The notes under the pieces: generated by a model
What the model was told of the DNA's origin: nothing
The model's input: the letters and a program-made list of their open reading frames with translations, nothing else
The model's database searches: none
NCBI GenBank assembly: GCA_033763675.1
Contig: JANRJZ010000178.1
Location: 1 to 63,543 of the forward strand
Reading direction: 5' to 3'
Source: Gemmatimonadota bacterium
GTDB taxonomy: Bacteria; Gemmatimonadota; Gemmatimonadetes; Gemmatimonadales; GWC2-71-9
Length of the DNA stretch: 63,543 nt
Shown here: positions 1 to 54,877 of the stretch, piece by piece
Layout of the letters: each line of letters starts with the position of its first letter
How positions within the stretch are numbered: position 1 is the stretch's first letter
Translations under genes and position numbers: made by a program

Positions 1-47
1 GCTCGGCGGCTCGGCGGCTTGGCGGCTGGCGGCTTGGCGGCTCGGCG
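1..47. repeat. Tandem octamer array (GCTCGGCG / GCTTGGCG units), truncated by the window edge
   Basis: Read directly: gctcggcg gctcggcg gcttggcg gctggcg gcttggcg gctcggcg. The unit is the reverse complement of the array at 703-777. Confidence 0.85.
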
Positions 48-116
48 CGATTTTCTTGGTCCGCGAGATGGCGAATTGATGGGGTGGCCCCGCGCCCATG
101 ATCCCAGCCTTGGGGC

Positions 117-620
117 ATGCCTGAAGCAGCTTGCCTCCCCCAGCGCCGCTCCATTCGCCTCTGGAGCTGGGATTATTCCCGCCCTGGCTGGTACTTCGTC
201 ACCATCACCACGCGGCTGGGCTGGTGGTATTTCGGGTTGAATGACGAGCGCGGATTACGACTCTCAGAACCCGGCCGCGTGGTCTCGGCAACCTGGGCCG
301 AGATGCCCGCCCGATTTCCACGGCTCCAGCTGGATGCCTGGGTGGTGATGCCGAACCACTTTCACGCCATCCTGCACCTGATTCCTGGAACTGAGGCCTC
401 TCGTCGCACCGTCGGGAGAATCATCAGCGCCTTCAAATCCCTCACCACCGTCCGCTACCTGCGCGGGATCCGGGCCTGCGGCTGGCCGCCATTCCACCGG
501 CGCCTCTGGCACCGGAATTATCACGACCGGATCCTCCACACCCCCACAGCGCTGGCCGCCACCCGCCGCTATATCGAGCAGAACCCCCAGATCCACCTGC
601 AGCGCGCCCGCCGCCAATAG
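117..620 (+). CDS. REP-associated tyrosine transposase (RAYT) / IS200-type Y1 HUH transposase
   Basis: 167-aa ORF with an HUH motif (VVMPNHFHAILH) and a C-terminal catalytic-Tyr context (LWHRNYHDRIL). Size and motif order are typical of the TnpA_REP/IS200 family. It is flanked by inverted short-repeat arrays. Confidence 0.8.
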   Translation: MPEAACLPQRRSIRLWSWDYSRPGWYFVTITTRLGWWYFGLNDERGLRLSEPGRVVSATWAEMPARFPRLQLDAWVVMPNHFHAILHLIPGTEASRRTVGRIISAFKSLTTVRYLRGIRACGWPPFHRRLWHRNYHDRILHTPTALAATRRYIEQNPQIHLQRARRQ

Positions 621-660
621 CCGCATGGGCCGCGGCTGGGCATGGCCCCCCAATAGCGGT

Positions 661-685
661 ACGGGCGACCCTTGTGGTCGCCCGT
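661..685 (+). terminator. Stem-loop downstream of the RAYT gene (possible terminator or REP-like hairpin)
   Basis: acgggcgac (661-669) pairs perfectly with gtcgcccgt (677-685) around a 7-nt loop. There is no U-tract. Confidence 0.35.
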
Positions 686-702
686 CCATGCTTCAAGCTT
701 CC

Positions 703-777
703 GCCGAGCCGCCGAGCCGCCGAGCCGCCGAGCCGCCGAGCCGCCGCGCCGCCGCGCCGCCGCGCCGCCGCGCCGCC
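703..777. repeat. Tandem octamer array: 5x GCCGAGCC followed by 4x GCCGCGCC
   Basis: Counted directly, with perfect 8-nt periodicity. It lies between the RAYT stop and the stop of the convergent gene at 777, and is inverted relative to the array at 1-47. Confidence 0.95.
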
Positions 778-1136: not shown

Positions 1137-2507
1137 TTACAGGCCGGCCTTGAGCGAGTCGGCGTTGTAGAGCTGACCCCGGACCATGACCCGCTGCACC
1201 GTCCGCGTGTTGCGGATGTCGGTGAGGGGGTTGGACCCCAGGATGAGGAGATCGGCCACCTTGCCCGGCTGGATTACTCCCAGGGAATCGGCGCCGAGGA
1301 GTTGTGCCGCGTTGCGGGTGGCGGTCTCAATGGCGTCCTGCGGCGTGAGGCCGGCGGTAACCAGCAGCTCCAGCTCGGTGTGCAGGCTCCACCCCGGCAC
1401 CAGCATCTGGTTGACGGCATCGGTCCCGGCCACGATCCGCCCGCCGGCGGCGCGGAACTCCCGAAGGAAGAGGTCCTGATTGGCCCGCGAGGCACGGAAC
1501 GCGGGGTAGTCATTCGCCGTCCACCCCGCCCGGGCGATCATCTCCGGCAGGTTCCAGCGCTGCAGTTGGGCATCGGGAATGGTGCGCAGGTCGGGATGGC
1601 TGAGGATGGCGGGATCGTCGAGCCGGCTGAAGGTCTCGTGCAGCACCAGCGTCGGGATGAGAATGATCTTCCGTTCCGCGAGGGTCTGGGCCACCCGGGC
1701 CAGCGCGGCACTGTCCAGCGTGGCCCAGCTCTTCTCGAAGTAGGTCCATCCCCGGAAGAAGCCCGCCCGGTGCTCGGCGTAGAACTTGTCCGGCTTGGGG
1801 CTCGCGGCCTCCGGGACGCCACTCATGTGTTCGATGGCCGCGACACCCAGCTGGCTGGCGGTCAGCGCATCGGTGAGGCCGAGGTGCGCGGTGACCTTGA
1901 TGCTGAAGGTGTTGGCCTCGTCGAGCAGGGGCCGGAAGAGCGCCGGGGTGACATGGGTATAGGTCTTGATGTAGTCGACACCGGCCACCGCGCGCGAGTC
2001 CACCGCGCGGCGCGCGGAGTCGGGGGTGGCCACCTCGGTGGCGGACGGGTAGGTGGCGGGCGGGCCGTCGATCATGGCGCCGGCGCTGTACACTCGGGGC
2101 GCGACCAGCCCGCCCAGGTTCACCTCTTCCCGCAGCGCCAGGATCGAATCCTGTTCGCCGTGGACATCGCGCACCGTGGTGACGCCCGCGATCACGTAGC
2201 GGCTCAGCGCCCAGCGCTCCAGGTGCCCATGGCCGTCCACCAGGCCGGGGAGGATCCAGGACCCGGTCACGTCCACTTCCTCCGCGGAGGAGGGGATCTC
2301 GAACCCCTCGCGCGGGGCGACGGTCTCGATCCGTCCCTGGTGGACCACGATGACCGCGTCCCGGAGCACCGGGTCGCCGGCGCCGCTGATGACGTTGCCG
2401 CCGACCAGCGCGATCCGGTCCTTGGGCTTCGGGGTGCACGCCTGAAGCAGTGCCAGGGCCGCGAGCAGCACCCAGGCCGCCGAGCCGCTGAGCCGCCGAG
2501 CCGTCAT
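1137..2507 (-). CDS. Metal-dependent amidohydrolase family protein, lipoprotein signal
   Basis: HxH metal motif (GLVDGHGHLERW) and amidohydrolase-like length and architecture. I chose the start at MTARRLSGSAAWVLLAALALLQAC (signal peptide plus lipobox) rather than the upstream ORF extension. Confidence 0.8.
   Translation of the reverse strand: MTARRLSGSAAWVLLAALALLQACTPKPKDRIALVGGNVISGAGDPVLRDAVIVVHQGRIETVAPREGFEIPSSAEEVDVTGSWILPGLVDGHGHLERWALSRYVIAGVTTVRDVHGEQDSILALREEVNLGGLVAPRVYSAGAMIDGPPATYPSATEVATPDSARRAVDSRAVAGVDYIKTYTHVTPALFRPLLDEANTFSIKVTAHLGLTDALTASQLGVAAIEHMSGVPEAASPKPDKFYAEHRAGFFRGWTYFEKSWATLDSAALARVAQTLAERKIILIPTLVLHETFSRLDDPAILSHPDLRTIPDAQLQRWNLPEMIARAGWTANDYPAFRASRANQDLFLREFRAAGGRIVAGTDAVNQMLVPGWSLHTELELLVTAGLTPQDAIETATRNAAQLLGADSLGVIQPGKVADLLILGSNPLTDIRNTRTVQRVMVRGQLYNADSLKAGL
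2479..2502. repeat. Three octamer units (GCCGAGCC / GCTGAGCC / GCCGAGCC) inside the signal-peptide codons of the amidohydrolase
   Basis: Read directly. On the minus strand it translates as RRLSGSAA. Confidence 0.7.
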
Positions 2508-11645: not shown

Positions 11646-12931
11646 TCCGGCGCCCTCCCGAGACTGGCCAGGAACCGCTCCACCACCCGGCGGGCGTTCT
11701 CGAAGGTCACCCCGGAGAGGGTGAGGGTCGTGATCAGCCCGCTCGAGGGGTCGCCGAGGGTGGCGGCCTTGAAGAACACATCGTACAGGCCGTCCAGCTT
11801 TCGGTAGCGGCGGGTGCAGAACACCGTGGCAAGCGCCAGGCCGGGCTGGCGGACGTTTCCGCTGGTGCAGCGCCGCGGGGTGACCACCTCGCGGCCCTGG
11901 AACGCGAAGCCGTCTCCCGAGAACTGGCTGGTGAGGAGGCTGTAGAACCGGAACCGGTTGAGATCCCGGGTGGAGAGCACGGTGTGCTGCAGGGTGAGCA
12001 CCCCCGACGACTGCTCCCCGGAGATGAACACGTAGTCGTCGGTCGAGCACTGGTGCTCGATGGTCTCGTAGGGACGCGTGCGGCTGTGTGAGGCGTCCCC
12101 CCAGCACTTGAAGAACGGCGCCGGTTCGGTGGGCACCTGGTAGCCGCCCAGGGTCACCGTCCGGGCGCTGTCCGCGAACAGCCGGGCCAGGTAGGTGTCC
12201 TGGTAGCTCAGCAGCTGCTGGGCCACGGTGCGGAGCAGGCTATCGGGCCGGACGTACCCGGGGCGCGTGGCCTCGTCCACGAGGGCGATCACCCGGTCCA
12301 CCGGCACCAGGAAGCTGACCTGCTCCCCGGCGGTGGAGACGTTCACGCCCACCACCGTCCCTTCCGCATTGACGGTCGGGCCCCCGCTCATCCCCGGGTT
12401 GATGGAGCCGGTGAAGTGGATCTTGGGGTAGAGGGTGTGCTCCAGCAGGCCGTTGTAGGTCCCCTCGACGATCGAGAGCCCGAGGTCGTGCGGATGGCCC
12501 ATGGAGTAGAGCCGGGTGCCCCGGTCCGGGGAGGCCGGGGCGAGCGTGAACCAGGGATCGCCCGCGGGCCCGGCCTGGAGCACCGCGAGGTCGTGGACCA
12601 CGTCGATGGCGAGGACCTCCACCGGCCGGCTGCGCTCCCCGCCGTCCACCAGCTCGGCCCGGTAGCGCTCCGGCCGGTTGATCAGCTCCGAGACGACGTG
12701 ATAGTTGGTGACCACGTGCCCGGCGCCGGAGACAAAGAAGCCCGACCCGATTGCCGACTTGGCCCCCGAGCGCTTCTCGATGCTCTGGATCTTGACCACC
12801 CGGGCCGCGAAGCGCCGGTACACCAGCGCCGCGTCCGGGCTCCCGGCCTGGGCCGGCAGTCCGCTCCCGAGGGCAACTCCCAAAACCGCGAGCGCTCCGG
12901 AAATCCGGAGCGCTCGGTGGACCAGGCTCAT
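11642..12931 (-). CDS. Trypsin-like serine protease (S1C-like, no PDZ), secreted
   Basis: Signal peptide MSLVHRALRISGALAVLGVALG. Catalytic triad contexts are TNYHVV (His), VHDLAVL (Asp) and NPGMSGGP (Ser). The ATG overlaps the stop of the upstream Lys-rich ORF (ATGA). Confidence 0.8.
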   Translation of the reverse strand: MSLVHRALRISGALAVLGVALGSGLPAQAGSPDAALVYRRFAARVVKIQSIEKRSGAKSAIGSGFFVSGAGHVVTNYHVVSELINRPERYRAELVDGGERSRPVEVLAIDVVHDLAVLQAGPAGDPWFTLAPASPDRGTRLYSMGHPHDLGLSIVEGTYNGLLEHTLYPKIHFTGSINPGMSGGPTVNAEGTVVGVNVSTAGEQVSFLVPVDRVIALVDEATRPGYVRPDSLLRTVAQQLLSYQDTYLARLFADSARTVTLGGYQVPTEPAPFFKCWGDASHSRTRPYETIEHQCSTDDYVFISGEQSSGVLTLQHTVLSTRDLNRFRFYSLLTSQFSGDGFAFQGREVVTPRRCTSGNVRQPGLALATVFCTRRYRKLDGLYDVFFKAATLGDPSSGLITTLTLSGVTFENARRVVERFLASLGRAPE

Positions 12932-13278
12932 CTCTTCTTCTTTTTCTTGCCGCTCTTCTTGGCCGGCCGCTTCGCCGCCTTCCGGGCCACCTTCTTTGCC
13001 GCCTTCTTCCTGGCGACCTTCCGGGCCGGCCGCTTCTTGGCCACCTTCTTTGCCGGCTTCTTCTTGGCGGCCTTCTTCTTGGCCGGCTTCTTCGCCGCGG
13101 CCTTCTTCGCGGCCGGCTTCTTCATGGCGGGCTTCCTGGCGGCCATGGGCATCGCTGCGGGCGCGGCCGCGGGGGCTGGAGCGGCCGCCGGGGGGGTGAC
13201 CGGCTCCATCGGCACGGGCGCGGGATCCATCCAGCCCGAATCCGTCCAGCTCATCTCCATATCGTCCAGCTCGGCCAT
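12928..13278 (-). CDS. Lys/Ala-rich histone-H1-like / AlgP-like basic protein with an acidic N-terminus
   Basis: 116 aa: MAELDDMEMSWTDSGWMDP... then KKPAAKKAAAKKPAKKKAAKKKPAKKVAKK repeats. A GGAGGAAG Shine-Dalgarno lies about 6 nt upstream of the ATG at 13278. Lys codons are mostly AAG, consistent with GC3 bias. Confidence 0.6.
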   Translation of the reverse strand: MAELDDMEMSWTDSGWMDPAPVPMEPVTPPAAAPAPAAAPAAMPMAARKPAMKKPAAKKAAAKKPAKKKAAKKKPAKKVAKKRPARKVARKKAAKKVARKAAKRPAKKSGKKKKKR

Positions 13279-13530
13279 GGGTGCTTCCTCCACAGTCTGC
13301 CGCGGCGCGAGACCCGCCGCCGGTGACGCGGGCAATCACTGCCCGCAACGATGCCTCGCTGGTAAGATGCACTTCTTCCGAATGAGTGCAAGACGGGGCG
13401 CCACACCGACCGCGTGCAGCCAGCCGGCCTCCGCCCCGGGCCACGCCGGGCCCCCCGGCAAGGCCCGAGACGCCGGGATCGCGATCCCGCTTCTGCATCG
13501 CAACATGGTATACGACAAGGGCTTACAGCC

Positions 13531-14199: not shown

Positions 14200-16869
14200 A
14201 TGCCGGCACCCACGCTGCCCTCCCGCCTGGCCTTCGGCCTGCTGCTGCCGCTGGCTCCCCTCGCCGCCCAGGCGGCGCCCGACTCGACCGCCCTCCGCCC
14301 CATCGAGGTCCACCGGAGCGCCGTGGACCTGCACGGCCCGGCGCGGCCCGGCAGCTACGTGAGCGCGGTCGGGCGGCGGTCGCTCGGGATGGGGAGCGAA
14401 CTCGGCGGCTTCGAGGTCTGGGCCTGGCCGCTCAAGCTGCTGCACCACTTCGAGCTCCGGTTCCAGACTCCGCTGTTCCAGGAGCCGATTCCGGCCCGCA
14501 CCCTGGCGCGTGAGGTGACCATCACCCCCGCCGGCCCGGTCATCACCTACACCCACCCCGCCTTCACGGTGCGGCAGACGGTCTTCGCAGCCCGCAACGA
14601 GCCGGCCATCGTCATGCTGCTGGACGTGGACGCGGTCCGCCCCATCGAGATCCTGGCCGAGTTCGTCTCCGACCTGGAGCTGGCGTGGCCCGGGGCCATC
14701 GGGGGCCAGTACGTGTTCTGGGACCAGGGAGAGAAGGCCTTCGTGCTCTCGGAGAGCCAGCGGAAGGCGAGCGCCCTGGTGGGCAGCCCGTTCACCACCA
14801 GCGCCACCAACCAGCCGGCGCACGACGTCCCCGACGCCCCCAACCAGCTGCGGATCGCGGTGGGGGATCCCACGCGCACCCCGATGCCGCGGCCCGGCGA
14901 GCCCGCCGGGCGGCTGACGAGCCTCCATGTGCGGGGGATCCCGATCGTCATCGCGGGGGCCCTCGCCCCGCGGGATACGGTCAAGGCGATCTATCGCCGG
15001 GTGCTGGCGGAGATCCCCCGGCTCTACGCCGAGCGGGTGGCGGCGGCGCAGGCGGTGCTGGACGGCTCGCTGTCGGTGGAGTCGCCCGATCCGCGGTTTG
15101 ATCTCGCGGTCCGCTGGGCGGCGCTCAACCTCGACGAGGCGATGGCCTGCAACCCCGACTTGGGGTGCGGCCTGGTGGCGGGCTACGGGCCGAGCGAGTC
15201 CCGGGGCGCCCGCCCCGGCTTCGGCTGGTACTTCGGGGGGGACGCCTCGATCAACTCCCTCGGCATCGGCGCCCTGGGCCAGTACGACCTGGCCCGCGAC
15301 GGGCTCGAGTTCTTCGTGAAGTACCAGCGGCCGGACGGCAAGATTCCGCATGAGATCTCACAGAGCGCCGGCCGCATCCGCTGGTTCGAGGACTACCCCT
15401 ACGCCTTCTACCACGCGGACACGACCCCCTACTGGCTGCTGGCCTGGGGAGACTACTGGAAGGCGACCAGCGACACGACGACGATCCGCCGGGTCTGGCC
15501 CGCCATCCGGAAGGCGTTCGACTGGTGCCGCGGCACTGTGGACTCCACCACCGGGCTGATGCTCAACTCGAAGGGCGGGCTGGGCGCGGTGGAGGTGGGC
15601 GATCTGGGCGTCGGGGTGGAGTCCGACATCTACCTGAGTGCGGTGTGGGTGGAGGCGCTGGACCGGATGGCCCGGATGGCGGAGGTCATGGAGCGGAAGC
15701 CCGCCCGGCGCAATGAATCGCCCAATCGCCCAAGCGCCCAATCGCCATTGGTGGCGCAGGCCCGCCAGCTCCACGCCCGCGCCCTCACCTCCCTGCGCGA
15801 GCGGTTCTGGCTGCCCGCGGAGCAGATGTATGCCTTCGCGCTGCTGGAACGGGGGGAGATCCGGCCCGAACTGACGGTCTGGCCCACTACCGCCATGAGC
15901 TTCGGGCTGTTCGAGCCGGAGCGCGGCATGCTGGCCGCCCAGGCCCAGGCCCGCGCGTCGCTCACCACGGACTGGGGGGCCCGGTCCCTGTCCAGCGGCA
16001 GCCGCCTGTTCGATCCGCTGCACTACAACAACGGCACCGTGTGGCCCTTCGTTACCGGCTTCGCGGCGCTGGCCCAGTACCGGTACCGGAACCCGACCAG
16101 CGGCTACCAGTTGCTGCAGAGCATCGTCCGGAGCGGCTGGGACCGGGGGCTGGGACGGAATCCGGAGGTCTACGCCGGCCTGATGCACGAGCCGCTCGAG
16201 ACCGCGGTGCCGCAGCAGTTCTTCGGCACCAGCTTCATCCCCACCGTGCTGGTGCGCGGGCTGCTCGGCTGGGAACCGGACCTGCCGGCCGGGACGGTAC
16301 GGCTGGCGCCGCAGCTCCCGATCGAGTGGGACCGCCTGGCGGTGAAGAACGCCCCTGCCGGGGAGAATCGCTACAGCCTGAGTGTCCAGCGGAGTTCCAC
16401 CCGGCTCGAGGTCACGCTGCGGCGCACCGCCGGCGCCCGGCCGCTCACCCTCGAGTTCGCTCCGCGGCTGCCGCTCGGTGCAGTGGTCCGGCGCGCCACC
16501 GCCACCGGGGCGGAGCCAGCGCCGTGCGGCGCCCCCGAGGCCACGGCGCGGGACGTGACCCTCCTCTGCCGGGTGCCGCTCACCGATTCGACCCGGTTCA
16601 TCATCGATTACGACGCCGGCTACGAGGTGCTGCTCCCTCCGGCCGAGGTGCCGCGGGGCGCGTCCTCACGGCAGCTTCGCCTGCTGGACCAGCGGCTGGT
16701 GCAGGACACCCTGGCGCTGGTGCTGGAGGGGCCCGCCGGCTCCACTTCGCCGATCCTGGTGCGCCGGAGCGGCAGCGTGCATCCGGTGGTCGTCTTTCCG
16801 ATGCCGGGAGATTCGGTGGACGGCTATAGCCGCACCGAGCTCCGGGTGCACCTGCCCGCCACACCCTGA
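14200..16869 (+). CDS. Secreted six-hairpin glycosidase-like protein (amylo-alpha-1,6-glucosidase / GDE_C-like)
   Basis: 889 aa with a signal peptide (LLLPLAPLAAQA). The central region GFGWYFGGDASINSLG...FFVKYQRPDGKIPHE...TPYWLLAWGDYW resembles the GDE_C/(alpha/alpha)6 glycosidase family. The family assignment is approximate. Confidence 0.65.
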   Translation: MPAPTLPSRLAFGLLLPLAPLAAQAAPDSTALRPIEVHRSAVDLHGPARPGSYVSAVGRRSLGMGSELGGFEVWAWPLKLLHHFELRFQTPLFQEPIPARTLAREVTITPAGPVITYTHPAFTVRQTVFAARNEPAIVMLLDVDAVRPIEILAEFVSDLELAWPGAIGGQYVFWDQGEKAFVLSESQRKASALVGSPFTTSATNQPAHDVPDAPNQLRIAVGDPTRTPMPRPGEPAGRLTSLHVRGIPIVIAGALAPRDTVKAIYRRVLAEIPRLYAERVAAAQAVLDGSLSVESPDPRFDLAVRWAALNLDEAMACNPDLGCGLVAGYGPSESRGARPGFGWYFGGDASINSLGIGALGQYDLARDGLEFFVKYQRPDGKIPHEISQSAGRIRWFEDYPYAFYHADTTPYWLLAWGDYWKATSDTTTIRRVWPAIRKAFDWCRGTVDSTTGLMLNSKGGLGAVEVGDLGVGVESDIYLSAVWVEALDRMARMAEVMERKPARRNESPNRPSAQSPLVAQARQLHARALTSLRERFWLPAEQMYAFALLERGEIRPELTVWPTTAMSFGLFEPERGMLAAQAQARASLTTDWGARSLSSGSRLFDPLHYNNGTVWPFVTGFAALAQYRYRNPTSGYQLLQSIVRSGWDRGLGRNPEVYAGLMHEPLETAVPQQFFGTSFIPTVLVRGLLGWEPDLPAGTVRLAPQLPIEWDRLAVKNAPAGENRYSLSVQRSSTRLEVTLRRTAGARPLTLEFAPRLPLGAVVRRATATGAEPAPCGAPEATARDVTLLCRVPLTDSTRFIIDYDAGYEVLLPPAEVPRGASSRQLRLLDQRLVQDTLALVLEGPAGSTSPILVRRSGSVHPVVVFPMPGDSVDGYSRTELRVHLPATP
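15719..15756. repeat. CGCCCAAT-family octamer array (3 units plus an inverted ATTGGTGGCG) embedded in-frame in the glycosidase CDS
   Basis: cgcccaat cgcccaag cgcccaat cgcc attggtggcg. It translates as SPNRPSAQSPLVA. Confidence 0.8.
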
Positions 16870-35625: not shown

Positions 35626-38600
35626 GCATCGCCGCCGCGGCGGTCCGGCGCCCCGTCACCACCATCGCCGCCACCCTCGCCCTGGTCCTCCTGGGTGCGG
35701 TGTCACTCGGCCGGCTCCCGGTGGCGCTGCTGCCGGATGTGACCCTTCCCGTGCTCACCATCCGCACCATCTACCCCGGCGCCGCCGCCACCGAAGCCAG
35801 CCGCTTCGTGGCCGAGCCGGTGGAAGAAGCCATCGCCGCCACACCGGGGCTGGTGGAAGTGCGCTCGGTGAGCCGCAACGGGGAGGTCACTACCACCGCA
35901 CGGTTTGCCTGGGGCACCGACATGGCGGCCACGGTGCTCGCGGTCCGCGAGCGGCTGGACAACGCCCGCAGCCGGCTCCCCGAGACCGCCGAACGCCCCA
36001 CCCTGCTCACTTCTGATCCGGGGCAGCGGCCGATCGCCGTGTTAGGCGTCTCCGGCACGGGGGAGCTCCGCTCCACCGCGCTGGTGGCGGAGCAGGTACT
36101 CGCCCGCCGGCTGGAGCAATTGGACGGGGTGGCCAGCGTGGCCGTGACCGGCGTGCCGGAGGACGAGATCCGGGTGGAGCTGGACCCGGCCCGGCTCCGC
36201 ACCCTGGGCCTCACCCCCGACGACGTGGTGCAGGCCATCCAGGCCGCCAACGTGAGCGCCCCCGGCGGGACCATCCGCCGGGGCCAGTTCCGCTTCTCGG
36301 TGCGGGCGCTCACCGAGCTGCGGCGGATCGAGGAGTTCGCCGACATACCCGTCGGCCCGTCGGCCCGTCGGTCCAGCGTCCGCCTGCGCGACATCGGCAC
36401 GGTCTCCCTCGCCACGGCGGAGCCGCGCACCCTCACCCGCCTCGACGGCGGGCCCGGCATCGGGCTCGTGGTGTACAAGGACGCCGGCGCCAATACCGTC
36501 GCCGTCACCCGCGACCTCGAGGCCGCGATCGCGCAGCTGGCGCGGGAGTTCCCCGCCTTCTCGCTGCGGCTGGTGGCGGCGCAGGCCCGCTTCGTGAACG
36601 ACGCCCTCTCCAACCTGACCCAGGAGATCGTGATCGGCGGCGCGCTGTCGCTGCTGGTGATCCTGCTCTTCCTCCGCGACTGGCGCAGCGCCCTCGCCAT
36701 CGGGCTGATCGTGCCGCTCTCGGTGCTGGTCTCCCTGACCGCACTCCAGCTCCTCGGCGTCACCATCAACGTCCTCTCCCTCGGCGGCCTGGCCCTGGGC
36801 GTCGGCCTGCTGGTGGACAACGCCATCGTGGTGGCGGAGGCCAGCGGCCGATTGCGGGAGACCGGCATCCCCCGGGCGCAGGCGGCGCGCGACGCCGCGG
36901 ACCAGGTCATGGGGCCGCTGATCGCCGGGACGCTCACCACGGTGCTGGTCTTCGGGCCGATCGTCTTCGTGCGCGGGCTGGCGGCGGCGCTCTTCCGCGA
37001 CCTCTCGCTGGCGGTGGTGACCAGCCTCGCGGACGCGCTGGTGCTGGCGCTGACGCTGATGCCGGTGATGCTGGCGGGGAGGCGGGACGGCTCGGCGGCT
37101 CGGCGACTCGGCGACTCGGCACCGCGGCCGAGCCGTCCAGCCGCCGAGCCGTCGAGCCGTCTCACCGCCTTTGGTCACCGTCTGGCCGAGTCCTACGAAC
37201 GCGGCATGATGTGGTGCCTCGACCACCCGCGCGCCGTCTTCCTCTCCGCCATCGCCGCGACCGCCGTCGCCGTGGTCCTGACCCTGCGCCTGCCGCGGGA
37301 GATCCTGCCCCAGGTGGACGAGGGGGTGGCCATCGCCACGCTGCGGCTGCCGGAGGGCACAGCCATCGAGGAAACCGTCCGTCAGGCCGCGCGCCTGGAG
37401 TCCGCGGCGCGGGAGCTGGGGGCGCAGGGGCTCTACACCCGCGTCGGCTCCGCCACCGACGAGGAGCTGGTGGCCGGGGCCGAGCCGGGGGGCGCCAACT
37501 TCGCGCAGCTGCTGATTCCGGTGCGCACCGGGCTCCCCGCCGCGCGCTTCGCCGAGGCGCTGCGCCAGAAGATCCCCGACCTGGCGCAGGGGTCGCTCGC
37601 CATTGACCTGGCGGGGCAGTCGGAGTTCGGCAGCCTGATCGGCCGCGAGGGGCGGCTCATGCGGGTGGAGGTGAGCGCTCCCACCGTCACCGAGGCTGCG
37701 CGTTTCGCCGACAGCGTGCAGCACGCCCTCCGCGCCATCCCCGAACTCTCCGACGTGCGCGACGCCTACGCCGGTACCCAGCCGGTGGTGGAGCTGGGGC
37801 TCGAACGGGAGCGGCTGGCGCTCCGGGGCATCACGGTGGACCAGGTGGCCAGCGCCATCGCCGGCGGGCTCTCCGGCGTGGAGGCGAGCGAACTGCGCGA
37901 GACCGACCGCCGCACCACCATCCGGGTGCGTTATGCCGGCGCCGCCAGCGAGGACCTGCAGACCGCCCTGGCCGCCACGGTGGACGGCATCCCGGTGGGG
38001 CAGCTCGTGACCGTGAAGGAGGTGCGGGACCCGGTGGAGGTGGTCCGGGTGGACCAGCGTCCGGTGCAGGTGGTGGAGGCGGCGGTGGAGCGGGGCGGCA
38101 CCGCGCGGGCCGTCAGCTCCATCCAGGACGCATTGGGCCGGCTCAAGGCGCCGGCGGGGCTCACCTGGGAGATCGCGGGGGCGGACATCGAGCAGCGCCG
38201 TACCATGCAGGAGCTGACGGTGGTCGCGGTGCTGTCGGTGGCGCTGATGTTCCTGGTGCTCGCCGGGGAGTTCGCCAGCTTCACCACGCCGCTGCTCGTC
38301 ATGCTGACGGTGCCGCTCGCCGGGGTGGGCGGGATCGTGGTGCTCTGGCTCACCGGCCAGAGCCTCAACGCGGTGTCGCTGATCGGCATGGTGGTCATGA
38401 TCGGCCTGGCGGACAACGATGCGGTGGTCAAGCTCGACGCCATCCGCCGGTTCCGTGCCCAGGGCCACTCGGTCCGCGACGCGGTGCTGCTCGGCGGGCG
38501 GCAGCGGCTCCGCGCCATCGCCATGACCTCGCTCACCACGATTGTGGGTGTGCTGCCCCTGGTCTTCGGCTGGGGCAGCGGCGGCGAGCTGTACCAGCCG

Positions 38601-38759
38601 CTCGCGGCCGGGGTCATCGGCGGCTCCATCACCGCGACGCTGGTGACCTTCTTCCTGCTGCCCACCGCCTACGCCATGGTGGAGCAGCGCGCCGAGCGGC
38701 GGGCCGCGGAACTCGTGGTTGGGCCATCGCCCAATCGCCCAATCGCCCAATCGCCGTGA
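35622..38759 (+). CDS. RND efflux permease (AcrB/MdtB-like), first of a tandem pair
   Basis: 1045 aa with 12-TM AcrB architecture: N-terminal AAVRRPVTTIAATLALVLLG, the LGGLALGVGLLVDNAIVV motif, and duplicated halves. GTGA overlap with the adaptor gene. Confidence 0.9.
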   Translation: MSIAAAAVRRPVTTIAATLALVLLGAVSLGRLPVALLPDVTLPVLTIRTIYPGAAATEASRFVAEPVEEAIAATPGLVEVRSVSRNGEVTTTARFAWGTDMAATVLAVRERLDNARSRLPETAERPTLLTSDPGQRPIAVLGVSGTGELRSTALVAEQVLARRLEQLDGVASVAVTGVPEDEIRVELDPARLRTLGLTPDDVVQAIQAANVSAPGGTIRRGQFRFSVRALTELRRIEEFADIPVGPSARRSSVRLRDIGTVSLATAEPRTLTRLDGGPGIGLVVYKDAGANTVAVTRDLEAAIAQLAREFPAFSLRLVAAQARFVNDALSNLTQEIVIGGALSLLVILLFLRDWRSALAIGLIVPLSVLVSLTALQLLGVTINVLSLGGLALGVGLLVDNAIVVAEASGRLRETGIPRAQAARDAADQVMGPLIAGTLTTVLVFGPIVFVRGLAAALFRDLSLAVVTSLADALVLALTLMPVMLAGRRDGSAARRLGDSAPRPSRPAAEPSSRLTAFGHRLAESYERGMMWCLDHPRAVFLSAIAATAVAVVLTLRLPREILPQVDEGVAIATLRLPEGTAIEETVRQAARLESAARELGAQGLYTRVGSATDEELVAGAEPGGANFAQLLIPVRTGLPAARFAEALRQKIPDLAQGSLAIDLAGQSEFGSLIGREGRLMRVEVSAPTVTEAARFADSVQHALRAIPELSDVRDAYAGTQPVVELGLERERLALRGITVDQVASAIAGGLSGVEASELRETDRRTTIRVRYAGAASEDLQTALAATVDGIPVGQLVTVKEVRDPVEVVRVDQRPVQVVEAAVERGGTARAVSSIQDALGRLKAPAGLTWEIAGADIEQRRTMQELTVVAVLSVALMFLVLAGEFASFTTPLLVMLTVPLAGVGGIVVLWLTGQSLNAVSLIGMVVMIGLADNDAVVKLDAIRRFRAQGHSVRDAVLLGGRQRLRAIAMTSLTTIVGVLPLVFGWGSGGELYQPLAAGVIGGSITATLVTFFLLPTAYAMVEQRAERRAAELVVGPSPNRPIAQSP
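37089..37158. repeat. Inverted pair of octamer arrays (4x GGCTCGGC-type, 6-nt spacer, 4x GCCGAGCC-type) inside the RND CDS
   Basis: ggctcggc ggctcggc gactcggc gactcggc accgcg gccgagcc gtccagcc gccgagcc gtcgagcc. It translates as SAARRLGDSAPRPSRPAAEPSSR, in the TM6-TM7 cytoplasmic linker. Confidence 0.9.
38720..38755. repeat. CGCCCAAT octamer array (about 4 units) forming the last codons of RND-1, immediately before the RND-2 start
   Basis: gggccat cgcccaat cgcccaat cgcccaat cgcc, then GTGA (start/stop overlap). It translates as GPSPNRPIAQSP. Confidence 0.9.
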
Positions 38760-41761: not shown

Positions 41762-41932
41762 GCGGGGAATCGCCTGGCAACTCCGCAGCACCACCTTCGC
41801 GCCATGGACCGGCCTGTGAGTATCATCCGGGCAGCAACCAGTGATGCGGGCACACTGACGGCGAACAGGGATGCGACGATACACATTGCTGACCACACAG
41901 CGAGCGCTCGTGTGCGGGAACCTGGGCGCGGT

Positions 41933-43060
41933 GTGACTCAGAACAGGCTCGTCGGGATCCTGGGATCCGTGGGGCTTCTGGCCGGCTGCTCTTCAGATCT
42001 GACTGACCGCGCCCGAGCGTTGACGAGCGACCCCCACGTCCACCCCAACCCCGCCTACGTGGACCAGTCGCTCAAGCCTGCCTGGTCGGTAGGCATGGGC
42101 GACCCACCCGTCATCCTTGGATTCTCGCTGGGGCGGACCCTGGCCCCGCGCGGGGACGTCGAGGGAGTCGGGGATGATTCCATCGGCCGGATCGCCGACG
42201 GGCTCATCCTCCCTGCCGGCGAGATCCTCCTTGTAGATGATGCTCTGCAGGTGCTTTGGCGGTATGGCCCGGACGGTGCCCAACGACAACTCATCGGCCG
42301 TCCCGGACAGGGCCCCGGCGAGTTTCGAGGTCCACGATCCGCCACGATGGTGCGGGGCGCCCTGGCCGTCCTCGACGCCGGGATCGGCCTGCAGTTCTTC
42401 GTCCCCGCCGGGGATGGATTCACGTTCTCGAGAGGGGTCCGTCTCACGCTCGAAGCGGATGACCTCTGTGTCCTAGATTCAGCGCTGGTGGTGCAGGGAA
42501 CTGCTGCAGGTCTTCCTATCCTTCACCTCTTCTCGCAGCAGGGCGAATTGAACCGCTCCTTCGGTCAGATCTACAACTCCCCAAATATCAGCATTAACGA
42601 GGCCATCGGAAGCACCGGTCGCCTGGTGTGTGACGGCGACAACAAGCTGGTGATCTATGCACCGCGAGGCGCCCTGGGAGAGGTCCGTGCCTACCGGACT
42701 GACGGCACACCCGTGTGGCGCACCATCTTTGCCAACTTCAGGGCGAACCGTATGGAGGACCATCCGGGAGGCTGGAGGGTCACGGTCTCCCCAGATGGTG
42801 TCCACAGCCTCCATGCACTCACCGCTATCCCTGGACGGGGGCTGCTGGTCCAGTGGACCTACCGTACCTATGACGAGATCGTGGCCCGCGCCTCTTACGG
42901 CACCATCCTGAGCTACCTGCTGAATCCGGTGACGGGTGAGCCGATCGGGCCCGATACGACCCTTCCCCCAATCCTCGCGGCGACCGACTCGACCGTGCTC
43001 GTCGCCTATGAGGATCCTGAGCCTCGCTTCGAGGTTCGCGCCCTGCTGCCGCGGCGGTAA
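41933..43060 (+). CDS. Beta-propeller-like lipoprotein (copy 6)
   Basis: The GTG at 41933 gives VTQNRLVGILGSVGLLAGC (lipobox). GRPGQGPGEF motif. The C-terminal ~60 aa are nearly identical at protein level to copy 8. Confidence 0.7.
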   Translation: MTQNRLVGILGSVGLLAGCSSDLTDRARALTSDPHVHPNPAYVDQSLKPAWSVGMGDPPVILGFSLGRTLAPRGDVEGVGDDSIGRIADGLILPAGEILLVDDALQVLWRYGPDGAQRQLIGRPGQGPGEFRGPRSATMVRGALAVLDAGIGLQFFVPAGDGFTFSRGVRLTLEADDLCVLDSALVVQGTAAGLPILHLFSQQGELNRSFGQIYNSPNISINEAIGSTGRLVCDGDNKLVIYAPRGALGEVRAYRTDGTPVWRTIFANFRANRMEDHPGGWRVTVSPDGVHSLHALTAIPGRGLLVQWTYRTYDEIVARASYGTILSYLLNPVTGEPIGPDTTLPPILAATDSTVLVAYEDPEPRFEVRALLPRR

Positions 43061-43081
43061 AGGCGGAAACTCGCCGTGATC

Positions 43082-43186
43082 GCCGTCGGGCTCCTGCGGC
43101 GCCCTCGCGCTGGCCCCCGCGGCGGCACCGTGGCCGGCACCATCGGTGCGATGTTCCTGCTGCCGCCGATGCTGGTAAGGCGGTAG
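43082..43186 (+). pseudogene. Degenerate copy of the last ~100 nt of the RND-2 gene (includes its stop codon)
   Basis: Aligns by eye with 41642-41761 (gccgtcggg ... ggccggcaccatcggtgcgatgttcctgctgccgccgatgctggtaaggcggtag), with a few substitutions and a short deletion. Confidence 0.8.
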
Positions 43187-43236
43187 GGCGGGAAGGGCGG
43201 TAGGGGGCAGTAAGGAGCTGTAAGGGTGAGTGGTTA
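43174..43236. repeat. G-rich 8-nt periodic array (GGCGGTAG / GGCGGGAA / GGGGCAGTAA... family)
   Basis: ggtaaggc ggtagggc gggaaggg cggtaggg ggcagtaa ggagctgt aagggtga. The same arrangement occurs at 45663-45722. Confidence 0.7.
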
Positions 43237-43408
43237 GTCGGCTTGCGCCCAAACCCAAGTCAGGGCTGCTGTACGAATCTTGGCACTCGTGACAACATGG
43301 CGGGGGGTGATCCTAACTTCTAACTTGCTGGTGGCTAGCAACTCTGATTTTACTGGCTCAAGGCTCCCTGACTCGAAGGCCGCTCGCGGCGCCACCGGGG
43401 AGGTAGGG

Positions 43409-44014
43409 ATGCCCCTGCTCAAGTCTCTGGCCCGGCTCGTCGGGTTCCTGCTGCTCGGCTCCGCGTCCTTCGCCATTGCCCACACCCTTGCCAGCGACGC
43501 TCGGGCGCAGCGAGTCGCAGCGACGCGGCATGCTGATTCCCTCGCAACGCGCGATGGTCCGAGCCTCCTCGTTGTCTACATTGGCTCGTCGCGGTGCCCG
43601 TGGTGCCGGGATCCGAAGCTCCCGGGTCTCCTGGAGGCAGTCCATGGATGGGCGATGGCCTACGCCGAGTCTCATGGCATGGGTTATCGCATGGTAGGTC
43701 TGGCGGTTGACCGGCAGGCAGAGTCGGGGCTTGACCACCTTCGCCGAGTCGGGCCGATGTTCAGGGAGGTATCAAGTGGAGGGGAGTGGCAGGGGCTTGC
43801 TGTAGGACCCCTCTTCTCGGGCGCTGGTGCCTCCCGGCCGGGGACGCCACAAGTTCTTGTGATGGCAAGGGATATCCGGCGGGTGGAGTCGGATAGCGGT
43901 CCCAGCACCATTGAGATAACCGGGCAGCGTGTCCTGTTGCGCCTTGCGGGCCTGGACGAATTAGAGCGCTGGGTGCAGGTGAACGCCAAGCCGCGAACGG
44001 GCCGTACGATGTAG
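43409..44014 (+). CDS. Membrane-anchored thioredoxin-fold-like protein with a CPWC motif, module B copy 1
   Basis: 201 aa. N-terminal anchor LARLVGFLLLGSASFAIA. LLVVYIGSSRCPWCRD resembles a Trx-fold CxxC active site preceded by a beta-strand. GGGGAGG Shine-Dalgarno. Paralog at 45891-46523. Confidence 0.6.
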   Translation: MPLLKSLARLVGFLLLGSASFAIAHTLASDARAQRVAATRHADSLATRDGPSLLVVYIGSSRCPWCRDPKLPGLLEAVHGWAMAYAESHGMGYRMVGLAVDRQAESGLDHLRRVGPMFREVSSGGEWQGLAVGPLFSGAGASRPGTPQVLVMARDIRRVESDSGPSTIEITGQRVLLRLAGLDELERWVQVNAKPRTGRTM

Positions 44015-44099
44015 CGCAGGTCGCAAGGACCGACCGGTCCGGGATGCACCCGGGTGATGCCGTCTATGCAGTTATGCTCAATCATTCAGGAGGTGGACG

Positions 44100-44318
44100 A
44101 TGTGGACCAGACTTGAAATTCCAACGGGCCGTGTAGCGGTTGCGATTGCACTGGTCGGTGCATTGCTCGGAGTCATCGTGGGCGCCAGTCCCGCGCGTGC
44201 GGAGGGGCAATGCCCCAACATGAAGTGTGAGAACAAGCAGTGTCTTCCAGGTGGCAATCGCTGGTGCACGCACCACAGCGGGGAGGATGGCGGCTACTGC
44301 TCCACTACGGCCTGCTGA
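44100..44318 (+). CDS. Secreted 6-Cys mini-protein precursor (72 aa), module B copy 1
   Basis: Strong AGGAGG Shine-Dalgarno 6 nt upstream. Signal-like MWTRLEIPTGRVAVAIALVGALLGVIVGASPARA, then EGQCPNMKCENKQCLPGGNRWCTHHSGEDGGYCSTTAC. The paralog at 46644-46856 has the same Cys spacing. Confidence 0.7.
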   Translation: MWTRLEIPTGRVAVAIALVGALLGVIVGASPARAEGQCPNMKCENKQCLPGGNRWCTHHSGEDGGYCSTTAC

Positions 44319-44359
44319 TCCCCGGGGGTACTGGGGTCGTGACCCGCAACCACGCGCAA

Positions 44360-45484
44360 ATGCATCGCGCTGTGATCGGGCTGGTAGGGCTCGCCACCGC
44401 GCTGACATGTTCGCCGGTGCCCGACGGCGGGGAGAGTCGACCCGGGGGGACGGCCGTCCTGCACCACCCCGAGGCTCGTTGGGTGGATACCTCGATTGGA
44501 GTGGGTTTCACGATTCCCCTGGATGCTCCGGGCGATCCGGGAGCCCTCCGACTTGGTGCAGGTGCTCAGGGAGGGTGGGGCACTGAGGCCGACGCCCCGG
44601 AGCACGCAATCGGCCGGATTTACAAGGTGCTCCTCCTGCCAGATCGAGGCGTGGTCATAGTGGATGATCGGTCACAGGTCGTCCGCGTGTATGCCTCTTC
44701 GGGGAGACCACAACAAGTCGTCGGTCGCGCGGGTCAGGGCCCTGGGGAGTTCCGCCGACCCCTCTCCGCCGCTATCGATGGAATGGGTCGTCTCTACGTG
44801 TCGGATACCAATCGGCGCATTCAAGTGTTTGTACCCTCCGGAGGGGAGTATCACTACGAGCGGACACTGACCCTGGAGGTGGAGGCCCAGGACATGTGCT
44901 TCCTCGGAGATAATCTCGTTGTGCAGGGCTTGTCGCTCGCTCGGCAGGCTCTCATCCATATCTTCGACGAGGACGGGAAGCTGGTCCGGTCATTCGGTGC
45001 ACTCTACCGTTCACCCAGCCCCGACATGAACGAGGAGTTCGGTCTGGGTCGTATCTCATGTGACGGGAAACGAGGCCTCATCTACTATGCCCCCCGAATC
45101 GGGATCGGAGAGGTTCGTGCGTTCGAGGCCAGTGGCACACCGAGCTGGCGCACCGCGTTCTCGGGTTTCCGCTCCAATCCGTGGGTTTCCGAGAACCGGA
45201 CCCTCACCACCCGGCTCTCTCGTAACGGGAATCACACCCTGATTACCCTCGTGCTCGTGGAAGGGCATGGGCTCCTGGTCCAGTGGACCTTTCGAACCTG
45301 GCAGCAATTGATGGACGAGGACAGTTTCGGCTCCACGGTAAGCTTCCTGCTAGATCCCGCCACGGGGGAGCCTCTGGCACTGGGTAACGGCCTTCCGCTC
45401 ATACCGGCCATCGGTGCCGCACGAGCGGTTGCGGTGTACGAAGATCCGGTCCCCCGCTTCGAGCTCCGGGCAATGCTGCCATAG
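44360..45484 (+). CDS. Beta-propeller-like lipoprotein (copy 7), module B copy 1
   Basis: I chose the start at MHRAVIGLVGLATALTC (lipobox). The track ORF starts at 44240, overlapping the peptide gene, and that extension is probably not translated. GRAGQGPGEF motif. Confidence 0.68.
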   Translation: MHRAVIGLVGLATALTCSPVPDGGESRPGGTAVLHHPEARWVDTSIGVGFTIPLDAPGDPGALRLGAGAQGGWGTEADAPEHAIGRIYKVLLLPDRGVVIVDDRSQVVRVYASSGRPQQVVGRAGQGPGEFRRPLSAAIDGMGRLYVSDTNRRIQVFVPSGGEYHYERTLTLEVEAQDMCFLGDNLVVQGLSLARQALIHIFDEDGKLVRSFGALYRSPSPDMNEEFGLGRISCDGKRGLIYYAPRIGIGEVRAFEASGTPSWRTAFSGFRSNPWVSENRTLTTRLSRNGNHTLITLVLVEGHGLLVQWTFRTWQQLMDEDSFGSTVSFLLDPATGEPLALGNGLPLIPAIGAARAVAVYEDPVPRFELRAMLP

Positions 45485-45525
45485 CGGTAGCGACGGTAAC
45501 GACGGTACCGTCGCTACTAGTCGTC
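45483..45525. repeat. CGACGGTA-family array with a central 14-nt perfect palindrome (cgacggtaccgtcg)
   Basis: agcggtag cgacggta acgacggta ccgtcgct actagtcg. Read directly, immediately after the propeller stop. Confidence 0.75.
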
Positions 45526-45556
45526 CGCTTCAACCTTGATAACCGTCGCCGTGAGC

Positions 45557-45674
45557 GCCGTCGGGCTCCTACACCGACCTCTTCGGCGCCATCGCGCTGG
45601 CCACCGCCGGCGGCACGGTGGCCGGCACCATCGGCGCGATGTTCCTGCTGCCGCCGATGCTGGTGAGGCGGTAG
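45557..45674 (+). pseudogene. Copy of the last ~100 nt of the RND-2 gene (includes its stop codon)
   Basis: From caccgacctcttcggcgcc to ggtgaggcggtag I count about 103 consecutive nt identical to 41659-41761. Confidence 0.9.
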
Positions 45675-45722
45675 GGCGGTAAGGCGGTAGGGGGTTGTAA
45701 GGGGCTGTAAGGGTGGGTGGTT
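45663..45722. repeat. G-rich 8-nt periodic array (GGCGGTAG / GGCGGTAA family)
   Basis: gtgaggcg gtagggcg gtaaggcg gtaggggg ttgtaagg ggctgtaa gggtgggt. Homologous to 43174-43236. Confidence 0.7.
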
Positions 45723-45890
45723 AGTTGGCTGGTGGCCAAACCCAAGGCAGGGCGGCTGTACGGATCTCGGCACTCTTGACAGCATGGGGGGGGTCCTAAC
45801 TTCTGACTTGCAATTGACTAGCAACTGTGATTTGCTGCCCCAAGGCTACCTGACCCGAAGGGCGCTCGCGGCGCCACCGGGGAGGTCTGG

Positions 45891-46523: not shown

Positions 46524-46643
46524 TGCCTCGGAGCTGACCCGGGCGTTGATGGCCCGGAAGGTTCGGGCGACACCAACCAAGTTCCCATGCAGTTGTTCGC
46601 CTCGTAAGTTGCGCTCGACGCAGTCTACCACGGAGGTAGGGCT

Positions 46644-46856: not shown

Positions 46857-46862
46857 GGGCGA

Positions 46863-48002: not shown

Positions 48003-48058
48003 GGCGATCAGGCAATCGGGCGATTGAGTCGCGGCCCAATCGCCCAATCGCCCAATCG
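48003..48058. repeat. Inverted pair of CGCCCAAT-family arrays between convergent genes
   Basis: ggcgatca ggcaatcg ggcgattg / agtcgcgg / cccaatcg cccaatcg cccaatcg. It fills the whole gap between the stops at 48002 and 48060. Confidence 0.9.
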
Positions 48059-54872: not shown

Positions 54873-54877
54873 AGCGA

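Follow-up and report, generated by a model that had tools for sequence, protein, structure and literature searches.

The first 777 nucleotides (nt) of contig JANRJZ010000178.1 (63,543 nt, GC content 70.5%; assembly GCA_033763675.1 of a Gemmatimonadota bacterium of the Gemmatimonadales), which was analysed over its full length and is called the window in the following, contain a gene for a REP-associated tyrosine transposase (RAYT; REP, repetitive extragenic palindrome) situated between two inverted arrays of an 8-nt tandem repeat. The reading that we consider the most probable, though with considerable reserve, is that this region is an ordinary REPtron, and that the octamer arrays are not its REPs, belonging instead to a separate genome-wide and clade-wide population of hairpin-forming repeats. 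In cis, the arrays are independent of the RAYT gene. The original prediction, made from the letters of the window, had taken the arrays for a possibly distinct class of RAYT-associated repeat in the place of REPs.

The open reading frame (ORF) at 117-620 (+ strand, 167 aa) is an intact RAYT with a TnpAREP-like Y1 HUH domain, as judged from profile searches, alignment, an AlphaFold2 (AF2) model and the ratio of nonsynonymous to synonymous substitution rates (dN/dS). It belongs to subclass 2.4 (Quentin et al. 2018, PMC6006769) / Group 4 (Bertels et al. 2017, PMC5581495), as these are characterised in the main texts of the two classifications. Its HUH motif is H81-F-H83 within PNHFHAIL, residues W131-H132 lie inside LWHRNY, and Y152 in YIEQNP, situated in the C-terminal helix (143-166), is presumed from its sequence context to be the catalytic tyrosine. 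An alignment with 19 homologues shows little or no variation at H81 and H83 and in the W-x-R-N-Y and Y152-I-x-x-N-P blocks. The placement in subclass 2.4 is based on the motifs NHFH and YIxxNP, which fit this subclass as its main text describes it, and on REP-derived in-frame insertions in homologues, RATTRVAPT representing a REP inserted in frame within P0013 and P0019. The AF2 model (pLDDT 85.5, pTM 0.82) has as its top Foldseek match in the Protein Data Bank (PDB) the TnpAREP-REP complex of Escherichia coli (4ER8_A, E = 4.8e-6, TM 0.58), followed by 28 IS200/IS605 TnpA chains; a PDB search with the sequence itself gave only a marginal match to 4ER8 (E = 0.14). At E <= 1e-5, 6703 homologues were found, many of which carry the label RayT. 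The Y1 HUH motifs, the homologues and the structural match to 4ER8 thus bear out the prediction of a RAYT-type gene.

Orthologues of 80-92% identity occur in the same gene neighbourhood in five metagenomic contigs (L001-L005), and dN/dS of the RAYT is 0.14-0.27 against L004 and L005, i.e., in the deeper comparisons. The gene is present once within the 63.5-kb window, is vertically inherited and is under purifying selection. Among the matches listed in a profile search of genome contigs with the RAYT alignment, identity was at most 46% and the matches came from other phyla; an exact-sequence look-up of the RAYT and of the neighbouring 118-aa protein returned no identical record. Short-read contigs of the lineage end in the arrays beside the RAYT (at base 1 of the window, at the 3' ends of L001-L003 and, by extrapolation, at the contig start of L213), and the RAYT is probably missing from the NCBI metagenome-assembled genomes (MAGs) of close relatives because contigs break in these arrays. 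GC content of the RAYT is 64.9% and GC at third codon positions (GC3) is 0.79, compared with a GC3 of 0.87-0.92 in the surrounding genes, which fits either acquisition from a lower-GC donor or different constraints. Upstream of about codon 8 of the RAYT, the window and L001 are no longer homologous (window 1-135 versus L001:3640-3895, L004 and L005), and the comparison indicates that the 5' end of the gene and the region upstream of it have been replaced at least twice, despite a synonymous divergence (dS) of only 0.075 between the genes of the window and L001. In the RAYT of L004 (L004:1665-2168, P0003), the near-invariant Tyr152 of YIxxNP is replaced by Asp (RRDIEQNP); catalysis may have been lost in that lineage, or the substitution may be a sequencing error.

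Between the RAYT stop codon and the downstream array, positions 659-687 (+ strand) form a REP hairpin with a GTAC foot, a perfect 10-bp stem (661-670/676-685) and the loop CTTGT. The sequence reads GGTACGGGCGACC-CTTGT-GGTCGCCCGTCC, which can also be written GTAC-GGGCGACC-CTTGT-GGTCGCCC-GT, and it is the sole match in the window to the pattern GGGCGACC-N3-7-GGTCGCCC (0 expected). Folded as single-stranded DNA (ssDNA), it reaches -15 kcal/mol (z = -6.2). By its sequence, this hairpin corresponds to the 'long canonical REP' that defines subclass 2.4 in the main text of the classification. It had been overlooked in the original prediction, which held that the flanks are not 20-40-nt palindromes, a statement that does not stand: in L001-L004 the REP is kept on both sides of the RAYT, with the upstream copy inverted (loop ACGAG or ACAAG, versus CTTGT downstream), and in the window only the downstream REP is seen, the upstream flank being cut off by the contig start. 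In other phyla, perfect-stem hairpins (>=8 bp) lie at most 450 nt away from the gene at 55 of 80 homologue loci, mostly in the form GTAGGGGC...GCCCCTAC, and the identical 21-mer GGGCGACC-CTTGT-GGTCGCCC adjoins the homologues L011, L027, L032 and L061. The full 25-mer (loop CTTGT or ACAAG) is multicopy in one metagenome assembly of about 50% GC. The octamer GGGCGACC by itself shows no over-representation in the window. The 20 kb at L215 contain three REP copies, of which one adjoins the RAYT and two form a doublet about 1.6 kb away. A metagenome scan with the looser pattern ACGGGCGACC-N5-GGTCGCCCGT yielded one match near a RAYT homologue and was rejected as too unspecific, many matches resembling intrinsic terminators and coming from unrelated organisms with 36-77% GC.

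Concerning the flanks of the gene, Tandem Repeats Finder (TRF) delimits an upstream array at 1-47, about six units of GCTCGGCG, G-rich on the + strand (period 8, 6.0 copies, 90% matches); its repeats are not perfect, one unit having 7 nt and C>T variants occurring, and it begins at base 1, the contig end, by which it is shortened. The downstream array at 701-777, C-rich on the + strand, is given as (CCGCCGAG)5(CCGCCGCG)4 (period 8, 9.6 copies, 98% matches); read directly, it consists of (GCCGAGCC)5 at 703-742, (GCCGCGCC)4 at 743-774 and a final GCC. It ends on the stop codon of a convergent 118-aa membrane-protein gene (777-1133, - strand), which bounds the array and is a conserved neighbour in all relatives. 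The short stretch between REP and array (686-700) appears, by comparison with relatives, to hold degenerate heptamer-like remnants (TCCATGC TTCAAGC ...) straight after the REP 3' foot. When reverse-complemented, GCTCGGCG gives a rotation of GCCGAGCC, an inverted-repeat search pairs 1-27 with 707-733 at 96% complementarity, and the ssDNA fold of 1-777 contains a stem of about 44 bp (4-47 versus 701-746) in the minimum free energy and the centroid structure alike (z = -8.0). A probe of two units (GCCGAGCCGCCGAGCC, <=2 mismatches) has 22 matches in the window versus 0.96 expected, with clusters beyond the RAYT flanks at 2479-2502, 37089-37120, 37127-37158 and 57438-57469 and an isolated 2-mismatch match at 9397. 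The inverted octamer arrays on either side of the gene, the long imperfect hairpin resulting from their pairing and the four other places of the unit had all been predicted correctly.

The flanking element itself is not the same in the relatives. L001 possesses (GGGGCTT)7 upstream of the RAYT versus CCGCCGAG downstream, L004 possesses (GGGCTGAG)n upstream, and in L005 the downstream array is almost gone.

Across the window, 21 arrays of period 7-9 with at least three copies were counted, versus 1.2 in 50 dinucleotide shuffles, and at least 12 array loci have neither a RAYT nor a REP nearby. The unit families are GCCGAGCC, AATCGCCC, GGTAGGGC, CCCGTCGG and the nonamer CGACGGTAC. Many arrays are coding and in frame: an array of the octamer family at 2476-2503 (- strand) encodes residues 2-10 (TARRLSGSA) of the signal peptide of an amidohydrolase, about four copies of AATCGCCC at 15716-15746 (+ strand, TRF) encode ESPNRPSAQSP within an 894-aa ORF, and in the segment 57427-57621 (- strand) octamers (57427-57488) and nonamers (57581-57621) form arrays that encode the linker behind the transmembrane segment and the N-terminal tail of an anti-sigma-like protein anchored in the membrane. 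Three arrays, all on the + strand, lie in a resistance-nodulation-division (RND) transporter gene: (CCCGTCGG)3 at 36348-36371 in a loop, the inverted pair (GGCTCGGC)n / (GCCGAGCC)n with a 6-nt spacer at 37078-37169 in the linker between transmembrane segments 6 and 7, and about four copies of ATCGCCCA at 38724-38755, which form the C-terminal tail (SPNRPIAQSP) and end at the stop codon. Outside or at the ends of genes are about four copies of GGTAGGGC at 43174-43205, which provide the stop codon of a small ORF and have a paralogous copy at 45662-45713; a degenerate GGGCGATT arm with a (CCCAATCG)3 arm at 47993-48058, abutting the stop codon of a (-) gene; the inverted nonamers (CGACGGTAC)3 and (CGCTACCGT)~4 around a 9-bp central hairpin at 54835-54951, between convergent genes; and the inverted pair (GGGCGATT)~4 / (AATCGCCY)~4 with a 13-nt spacer at 58341-58416, in the divergent intergenic region upstream of gyrA. 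Stop codons are abutted by the arrays at 701-777, 43174, 48034-48058 and 54917-54951.

The inverted pairs at 37078-37169 (z = -5.0), 54835-54951 (z = -6.3) and 58341-58416 (z = -5.9) fold better than shuffled sequences, whereas single arrays fold no better than shuffles (z = -0.3 and +3.0). The arrays are direct repeats of 7-9 nt and differ from REPs, which are imperfect palindromes of 20-40 nt with a GT[AG]G foot, and no conserved GT[AG]G foot was found at 15 array-pair boundaries. As read off the sequence, at least four GGG tracts are present in the GGGCGATT, GGGGCTT and GGGAACG families, whereas the RAYT-flanking unit GCTCGGCG and the nonamers contain GG runs only and do not have the form of a G-quadruplex. 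Neither an Rfam scan nor a tRNA scan of the window found anything.

The independence of arrays and RAYT in cis is further apparent from the syntenic site in relatives, which was retrieved via the neighbouring amidohydrolase. In L206 (83% identical) the RAYT is absent, the same convergent genes lie 22 nt apart, and no 7-8-nt arrays occur within 16 kb. L208-L210 (78% identical) and L211 (75%) have no RAYT, no REP and no 250-aa gene at the syntenic place, and their spacer holds inverted pairs, either (AGTACCG)8.3/(CGGTACT)4.7 or GGTGCC/GGGCACC; in L208, 21 kb contain four inverted pairs, and all begin at most a few nt from a stop codon. No REP was found in about 95 kb of these relatives. Likewise, at 80 loci of RAYT homologues, arrays of period 6-10 are not enriched within 500 nt of the gene (0.12/kb, versus 0.15/kb elsewhere). 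The expectation that arrays be enriched beside RAYT genes and tied to their presence, on which the original prediction depended, largely fails: short arrays are not denser beside the homologues, arrays of the window lie away from any RAYT, relatives without a RAYT at this site carry heptamer pairs, and in the closest relative the units of the two flanking arrays differ. As a separate observation at the syntenic locus, a gene with an AIRS domain (L206:7422-8390, L208:~11951-13021, L211:11885-12868) carries an in-frame TGA in the context HGAG-TGA-ACKLG, which resembles the context typical of the selenocysteine codon in selenophosphate synthetase (SelD); its start is called at differing places because of this TGA.

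A comparison with two close relatives gives an impression of how the arrays change. L213 and L214 are 92-98% identical to the window over 26.7-54.8 kb, and for the RND transporter of the window a Gemmatimonadetes MAG encodes a protein of 98% identity. The linker arrays of the transporter have boundaries common to the window, L213 and L214, namely AGGCGG|...|TTGGTCACC or, in the longer form, ...GCTGGCGGGRAGGCGG| and |TTGGTCACCG, and a different content in each: (GGCTCGGC)/(GCCGAGCC) in the window (37078-37169), (GGCGGTTC)/(AACCGCCC) with a 57-nt spacer in L213 (L213:11460-11573) and (CGGGGAA)/(TTCCCCG) in L214 (L214:2736-2800). The units GGCTCGGC, GGCGGTTC and CGGGGAA each begin with the flanking GGCGG. 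Judged from these sequences, the change of unit between genomes of 92-95% identity is a replacement and not drift. A similar situation exists at the site before 48060, where the window and L214 have the GGGCGATT family and L213 a nonamer pair, all three ending with a shared stop codon; L213 also carries an array family GGGCGGTT/AACCGCCC. Conserved in L213 and L214, on the other hand, are the loop array (CCCGTCGG)3 and the C-terminal tail CAATCGCC, and in a composite array of L214 (L214:7395) the unit drifts gradually from GGCGGTAG via GGCGATAA to GGCGATTG. In an alignment of 25 RND orthologues, the same segments are hypervariable and can be read as translated arrays, e.g., RRLGDSAT x3, a TRNAERGT/SAFRVP pair and a GTGNGE/SPFPVP pair.

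Among all fetched loci (2.17 Mb, several phyla), 18 of the 21 non-redundant close pairs have their G-rich arm on the 5' side and their C-rich arm on the 3' side, two are opposite and one is ambiguous, several of these pairs sharing genomes and hence not being fully independent. The polarity of a pair is unchanged by strand reversal and is consequently not an artefact of orientation; equivalently, the C-rich array is 3' of the centre on both strands. In the window, the G-rich arm comes first in the pairs at 37078, 47993, 54835 and 58341 and in 1-47/701-777, and the arrays outside the two REPs of the RAYT obey the same polarity in the window, L001, L004 and L215.

Two further regions of the window contain repeats or arrays of a particular kind. 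A small ORF at 12928-13335 (- strand) has a Lys/Ala/Pro-rich, histone-H1-like C-terminal tail (AKKPAKKKAAKK...), to which the TRF arrays of period 12-54 at 12944-13140 are due. About 5.3 kb at 41770-47118 have a lower GC content (about 64%) and are not found in L213 or L214. Three tandem paralogues (41804-43060, 44240-45484 and 46863-48002) end in YEDPEPRFEVRAL, the last of them being the conserved copy; behind each of the first two comes a small hydrophobic ORF (...TIGAMFLLPPMLVRR) with a stop codon from a GGTAGGGC array.

On the reading of an ordinary REPtron with an independent array population, the lineage would carry a RAYT and its cognate REP hairpin(s) between two convergent genes. By analogy with other RAYTs, the protein would bind the folded REP on ssDNA via the hairpin and the 5' GTA(C/G) foot, and its HUH/Tyr centre would then cleave and rejoin the ssDNA. 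The arrays, mostly inverted pairs of a 5' G-rich and a 3' C-rich arm, would fold as long hairpins and fill the space by stop codons, and would also be accommodated in signal peptides, linkers and C-terminal tails where their total length preserves the frame. They would presumably arise and turn over locally when replication slips on the repeat, while template switching within the strand would preserve the complementarity of the arms, and would be maintained, by tolerance or by selection, as hairpins at 3' ends or as disordered peptide that does no harm. The RAYT cassette would then sit in the spacer of an array pair or, equivalently, the arrays would have grown outward from the REPs into intergenic space, and either of these would explain the picture of a RAYT flanked by inverted arrays.

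Several observations weigh against this reading. The scores of the 117-620 protein are below the cutoffs of Pfam Y1_Tnp (19.6 bits, cutoff 23) and NCBIfam REP_Tyr_transpos (50 bits, cutoff 80), which is attributed to an under-representation of the subclass in these models, as most homologues are likewise without a Pfam hit. The cognate REP is seen a single time in 63.5 kb, which leaves the array, rather than the REP, as the abundant repeat of this genome. On either side of the RAYT lies the same array family, inverted, a coincidence of about 1 in 100 by a rough post hoc estimate, and in every relative, as well as at the independent locus L215, the REPs of the RAYT adjoin arrays. Unit families recur, GCCGAGCC and AATCGCCC at five places each, which would not be expected from local slippage alone and suggests dispersal or conversion between loci. 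The replacement of units at fixed boundaries is hard to obtain via point mutation and slippage. Finally, the REP foot or arm is found within array units of 12-20 nt at L008, L022, L037, L048 and L074, and also at L215.

The explanation that we regard as the foremost alternative, possible although clearly less probable, is that the arrays are by-products of REP processing by the RAYT. Repeated cleavage and rejoining, or slipped synthesis primed from a nick, would polymerise the arm or foot together with adjacent bases 3' of the hairpin on either strand, and the octamer pairs would be REP-like hairpins with polymerised 8-nt arms, seeded in trans throughout the genome. In L215, the RAYT is 59% identical and stands in a different neighbourhood; there, a 16-mer array, (GCCCGCCAGATCAAAA)4, starts within the REP 3' foot, and behind a second REP its own 3' arm is repeated five times in tandem, (GGTCGCCCCCGGTGT)n. 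In other phyla, arrays that begin within a REP foot or arm are located at L008:664-733, L037:9885-9955, L048:178-237, L074:9734-9870 and L215:10560-10625 and 12140-12230, next to RAYT genes, and in L005 heptamers (TCCGAGC TCCGAGC) begin right at the REP 3' foot. Going by these sequences, REPs can apparently spawn tandem arrays, and the word 'tandem' does not occur in the main texts of the two RAYT classification papers (PMC6006769, PMC5581495). The prediction of a RAYT-associated repeat class is hence kept as partly supported, because several independent RAYT loci have, directly beside their REPs, arrays with a REP foot or arm in the unit; arrays that bracket the gene and pair with each other are real as well, whereas the short arrays of the window are independent of the RAYT in cis and their unit differs in relatives.

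Concerning arrays of longer units, those of period 11-30 are about fourfold denser within 500 nt of the RAYT homologues (0.10/kb versus 0.027/kb elsewhere), which argues for processing by-products; however, this enrichment may merely reflect the intergenic flanks of genes, and the short arrays show no such enrichment. The polarity of 18 of the 21 pairs is that of the arrays outside the two REPs of the RAYT, and L206, without a RAYT at the locus, has no 7-8-nt arrays in its 16 kb; on the other side, L208 and L211 are rich in arrays with neither REP nor RAYT in 21 kb each, L215 and L216 have RAYT and REPs and few short arrays, and most array pairs have neither a REP nor a GT[AG]G foot in or beside them. 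The REP arm is exactly 8 nt long (GGGCGACC), like the units of the array families GGGCGATT/AATCGCCC and, in L213, GGGCGGTT/AACCGCCC, and their similarity to it is within chance at 70% GC. A derivation of array units from the REP arm (GGGCGATT versus GGGCGACC) was considered and rejected, since with rotations, both strands and 70% GC a distance of <=2 is unremarkable. In Xanthomonas, moreover, comparable arrays are unlinked to mobile elements (Rehm et al. 2015, PMC4692102). A RAYT-dependent origin acting in trans is retained at this lower level of probability because of the recurring unit families, the unit replacement at fixed sites and the REP-anchored arrays.

The reading of the original prediction, by which the octamer arrays replace REPs as the substrate of the RAYT and two inverted arrays form a REPIN-like unit (REPIN, a REP doublet forming a hairpin), is unlikely. 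Inverted arrays of the same unit bracket the gene with a 44-bp stem, the family is dispersed at four other places, and in-frame intragenic arrays have a counterpart in what the main text of the classification describes for REPs of subclass 2.4. Nevertheless, the gene has a conserved canonical REP, relatives that carry the same gene have flanking arrays of another unit or almost none, other families of 7-, 8- and 9-mers coexist in the genome, the arrays lack a conserved foot tetranucleotide, and arrays occur at the syntenic site where the gene does not.

Still more improbable is a templated, telomerase-like or reverse-transcriptase-like addition of repeats to the 3' ends of a break with subsequent rejoining: it would explain the polarity, in which the G-rich strands point, 5'>3', at the centre from either side, and also the presence of one unit at many loci and the replacement at identical boundaries; however, a scan of the window that covered part of its ORFs turned up no candidate enzyme or template, several unit families coexist, and the composite array at L214:7395 drifts gradually. 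We know of no bacterial precedent for such an activity. That the arrays are low-complexity repeats made or mis-joined at contig ends by the assembler can practically be dismissed, for although the upstream array lies at the very contig start, the contigs L001-L003 end inside the downstream array and the start of L213 extrapolates to about window position 745, the same arrays come from independent samples and assemblers (L001-L003, 6 samples), internal arrays are shared by the window, L213 and L214 and stand in frame within conserved genes, and real repeats are also expected to break contigs.

Comparable short tandem repeats are the short tandemly repeated repetitive (STRR) heptamers of cyanobacteria. 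The arrays of the window share with paired hairpins of short simple sequence repeats (SSRs) the tandem units of 7-9 nt in at least three copies, the convergent pairs, the vicinity to stop codons and some intragenic copies. They are similar to the GGGAATC arrays of Xanthomonas and the GGGGA(C/T)T arrays of Nostoc (PMC4692102), which likewise consist of short tandem units, mostly in about four copies and mostly intergenic, lie within tens of nt of stop codons and preserve their type while their length varies. For Xanthomonas, 70-75 convergent inverted pairs of the heptamer per genome are described, mostly near stop codons, with the repeat type kept between species, a variable length and no tie to mobile elements (PMC4692102). 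Despite this general similarity, the window possesses units of 8 and 9 nt besides 7 and several unrelated families per genome, copies that are coding and in frame are common, close relatives differ by replaced units, and the RAYT-flanking unit has only GG runs, which makes a G-quadruplex unlikely. In Geobacter metallireducens, paired sites on opposite strands with 3-5 tandem octa-, hepta- or nonanucleotides and variable spacing are reported, along with 49 four-heptamer elements within and between genes (Gmet_H4), all of them absent from G. sulfurreducens (Aklujkar et al. 2009, PMC2700814). These paired sites were read as IHF/HU 'global regulator binding sites', whereas comparative turnover is given only for the window arrays. 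On mechanism, the literature found for tandem heptamer or octamer pairs consists of descriptive reports only. REPINs (Bertels & Rainey 2011, PMC3116915) are also intergenic hairpins of two inverted arms and a spacer, with a proposed dependence on a RAYT in trans; however, their arms are single imperfect palindromes with a GTAG foot, whereas those of the window are tandem 7-9-mers without it.

The RAYT itself shares with the E. coli REPtron (TnpAREP, 4ER8; Nunvar 2010, PMC2817692; Ton-Hoang/Messing 2012, PMC3479197) the Y1 HUH fold with HUH and Tyr motifs and the arrangement of a single-copy gene between inverted hairpin REPs with a conserved 5' foot. It differs in its subclass, its identity of 19% to TnpAREP and its foot, GTAC and not GTAG; furthermore, the REP is found once in 63.5 kb and not in high copy number, and the REPs are extended outward by tandem arrays. 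Agreement is closer with subclass 2.4 / Group 4 as presented in the main texts (PMC6006769, PMC5581495), in the motifs NH[IFV]H and YIxxNP, in the 'long canonical REP' with a GGG/CCC stem base, in REP insertions in homologous genes, in low-copy flanking repeats and in a scattered distribution over many phyla; for Group 4, the main text describes flanking 16-mers at low copy (PMC5581495). The RAYT of the window has WH in place of the WQ given there for the W motif of subclass 2.4, and Gemmatimonadota are not among the phyla named for subclass 2.4 / Group 4 in these texts.

No new RAYT substrate is revealed by these results, the gene being a normal RAYT of subclass 2.4 with a normal REP. In practical terms, the arrays break short-read assemblies and inflate or shift protein predictions. 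One might speculate, with little confidence, that hairpins of 7-9-nt arrays are a second product of HUH/RAYT systems in general, extending to the cyanobacterial STRRs, the GGGAATC repeats of Xanthomonas and the paired sites of G. metallireducens. If this were true, ssDNA processing at the hairpin foot would polymerise the arm or foot 3' on both strands, and hairpins would be seeded or replaced in trans; such an origin would explain the polarity, the recurring families, the replacement at fixed sites and the in-frame invasion of linkers. The REP-foot-anchored arrays at several RAYT loci offer a concrete and cheap biochemical handle on whether HUH enzymes create tandem repeats. For the Gemmatimonadales, the findings mean that their genomes are dense in paired arrays of 7-, 8- and 9-mers, by which the repeat class of Xanthomonas, Nostoc and Geobacter is now recorded in a new phylum, together with comparative evidence of a fast and site-specific turnover, in which the unit appears to be fully exchanged at an unchanged site between genomes that are 92-95% identical.

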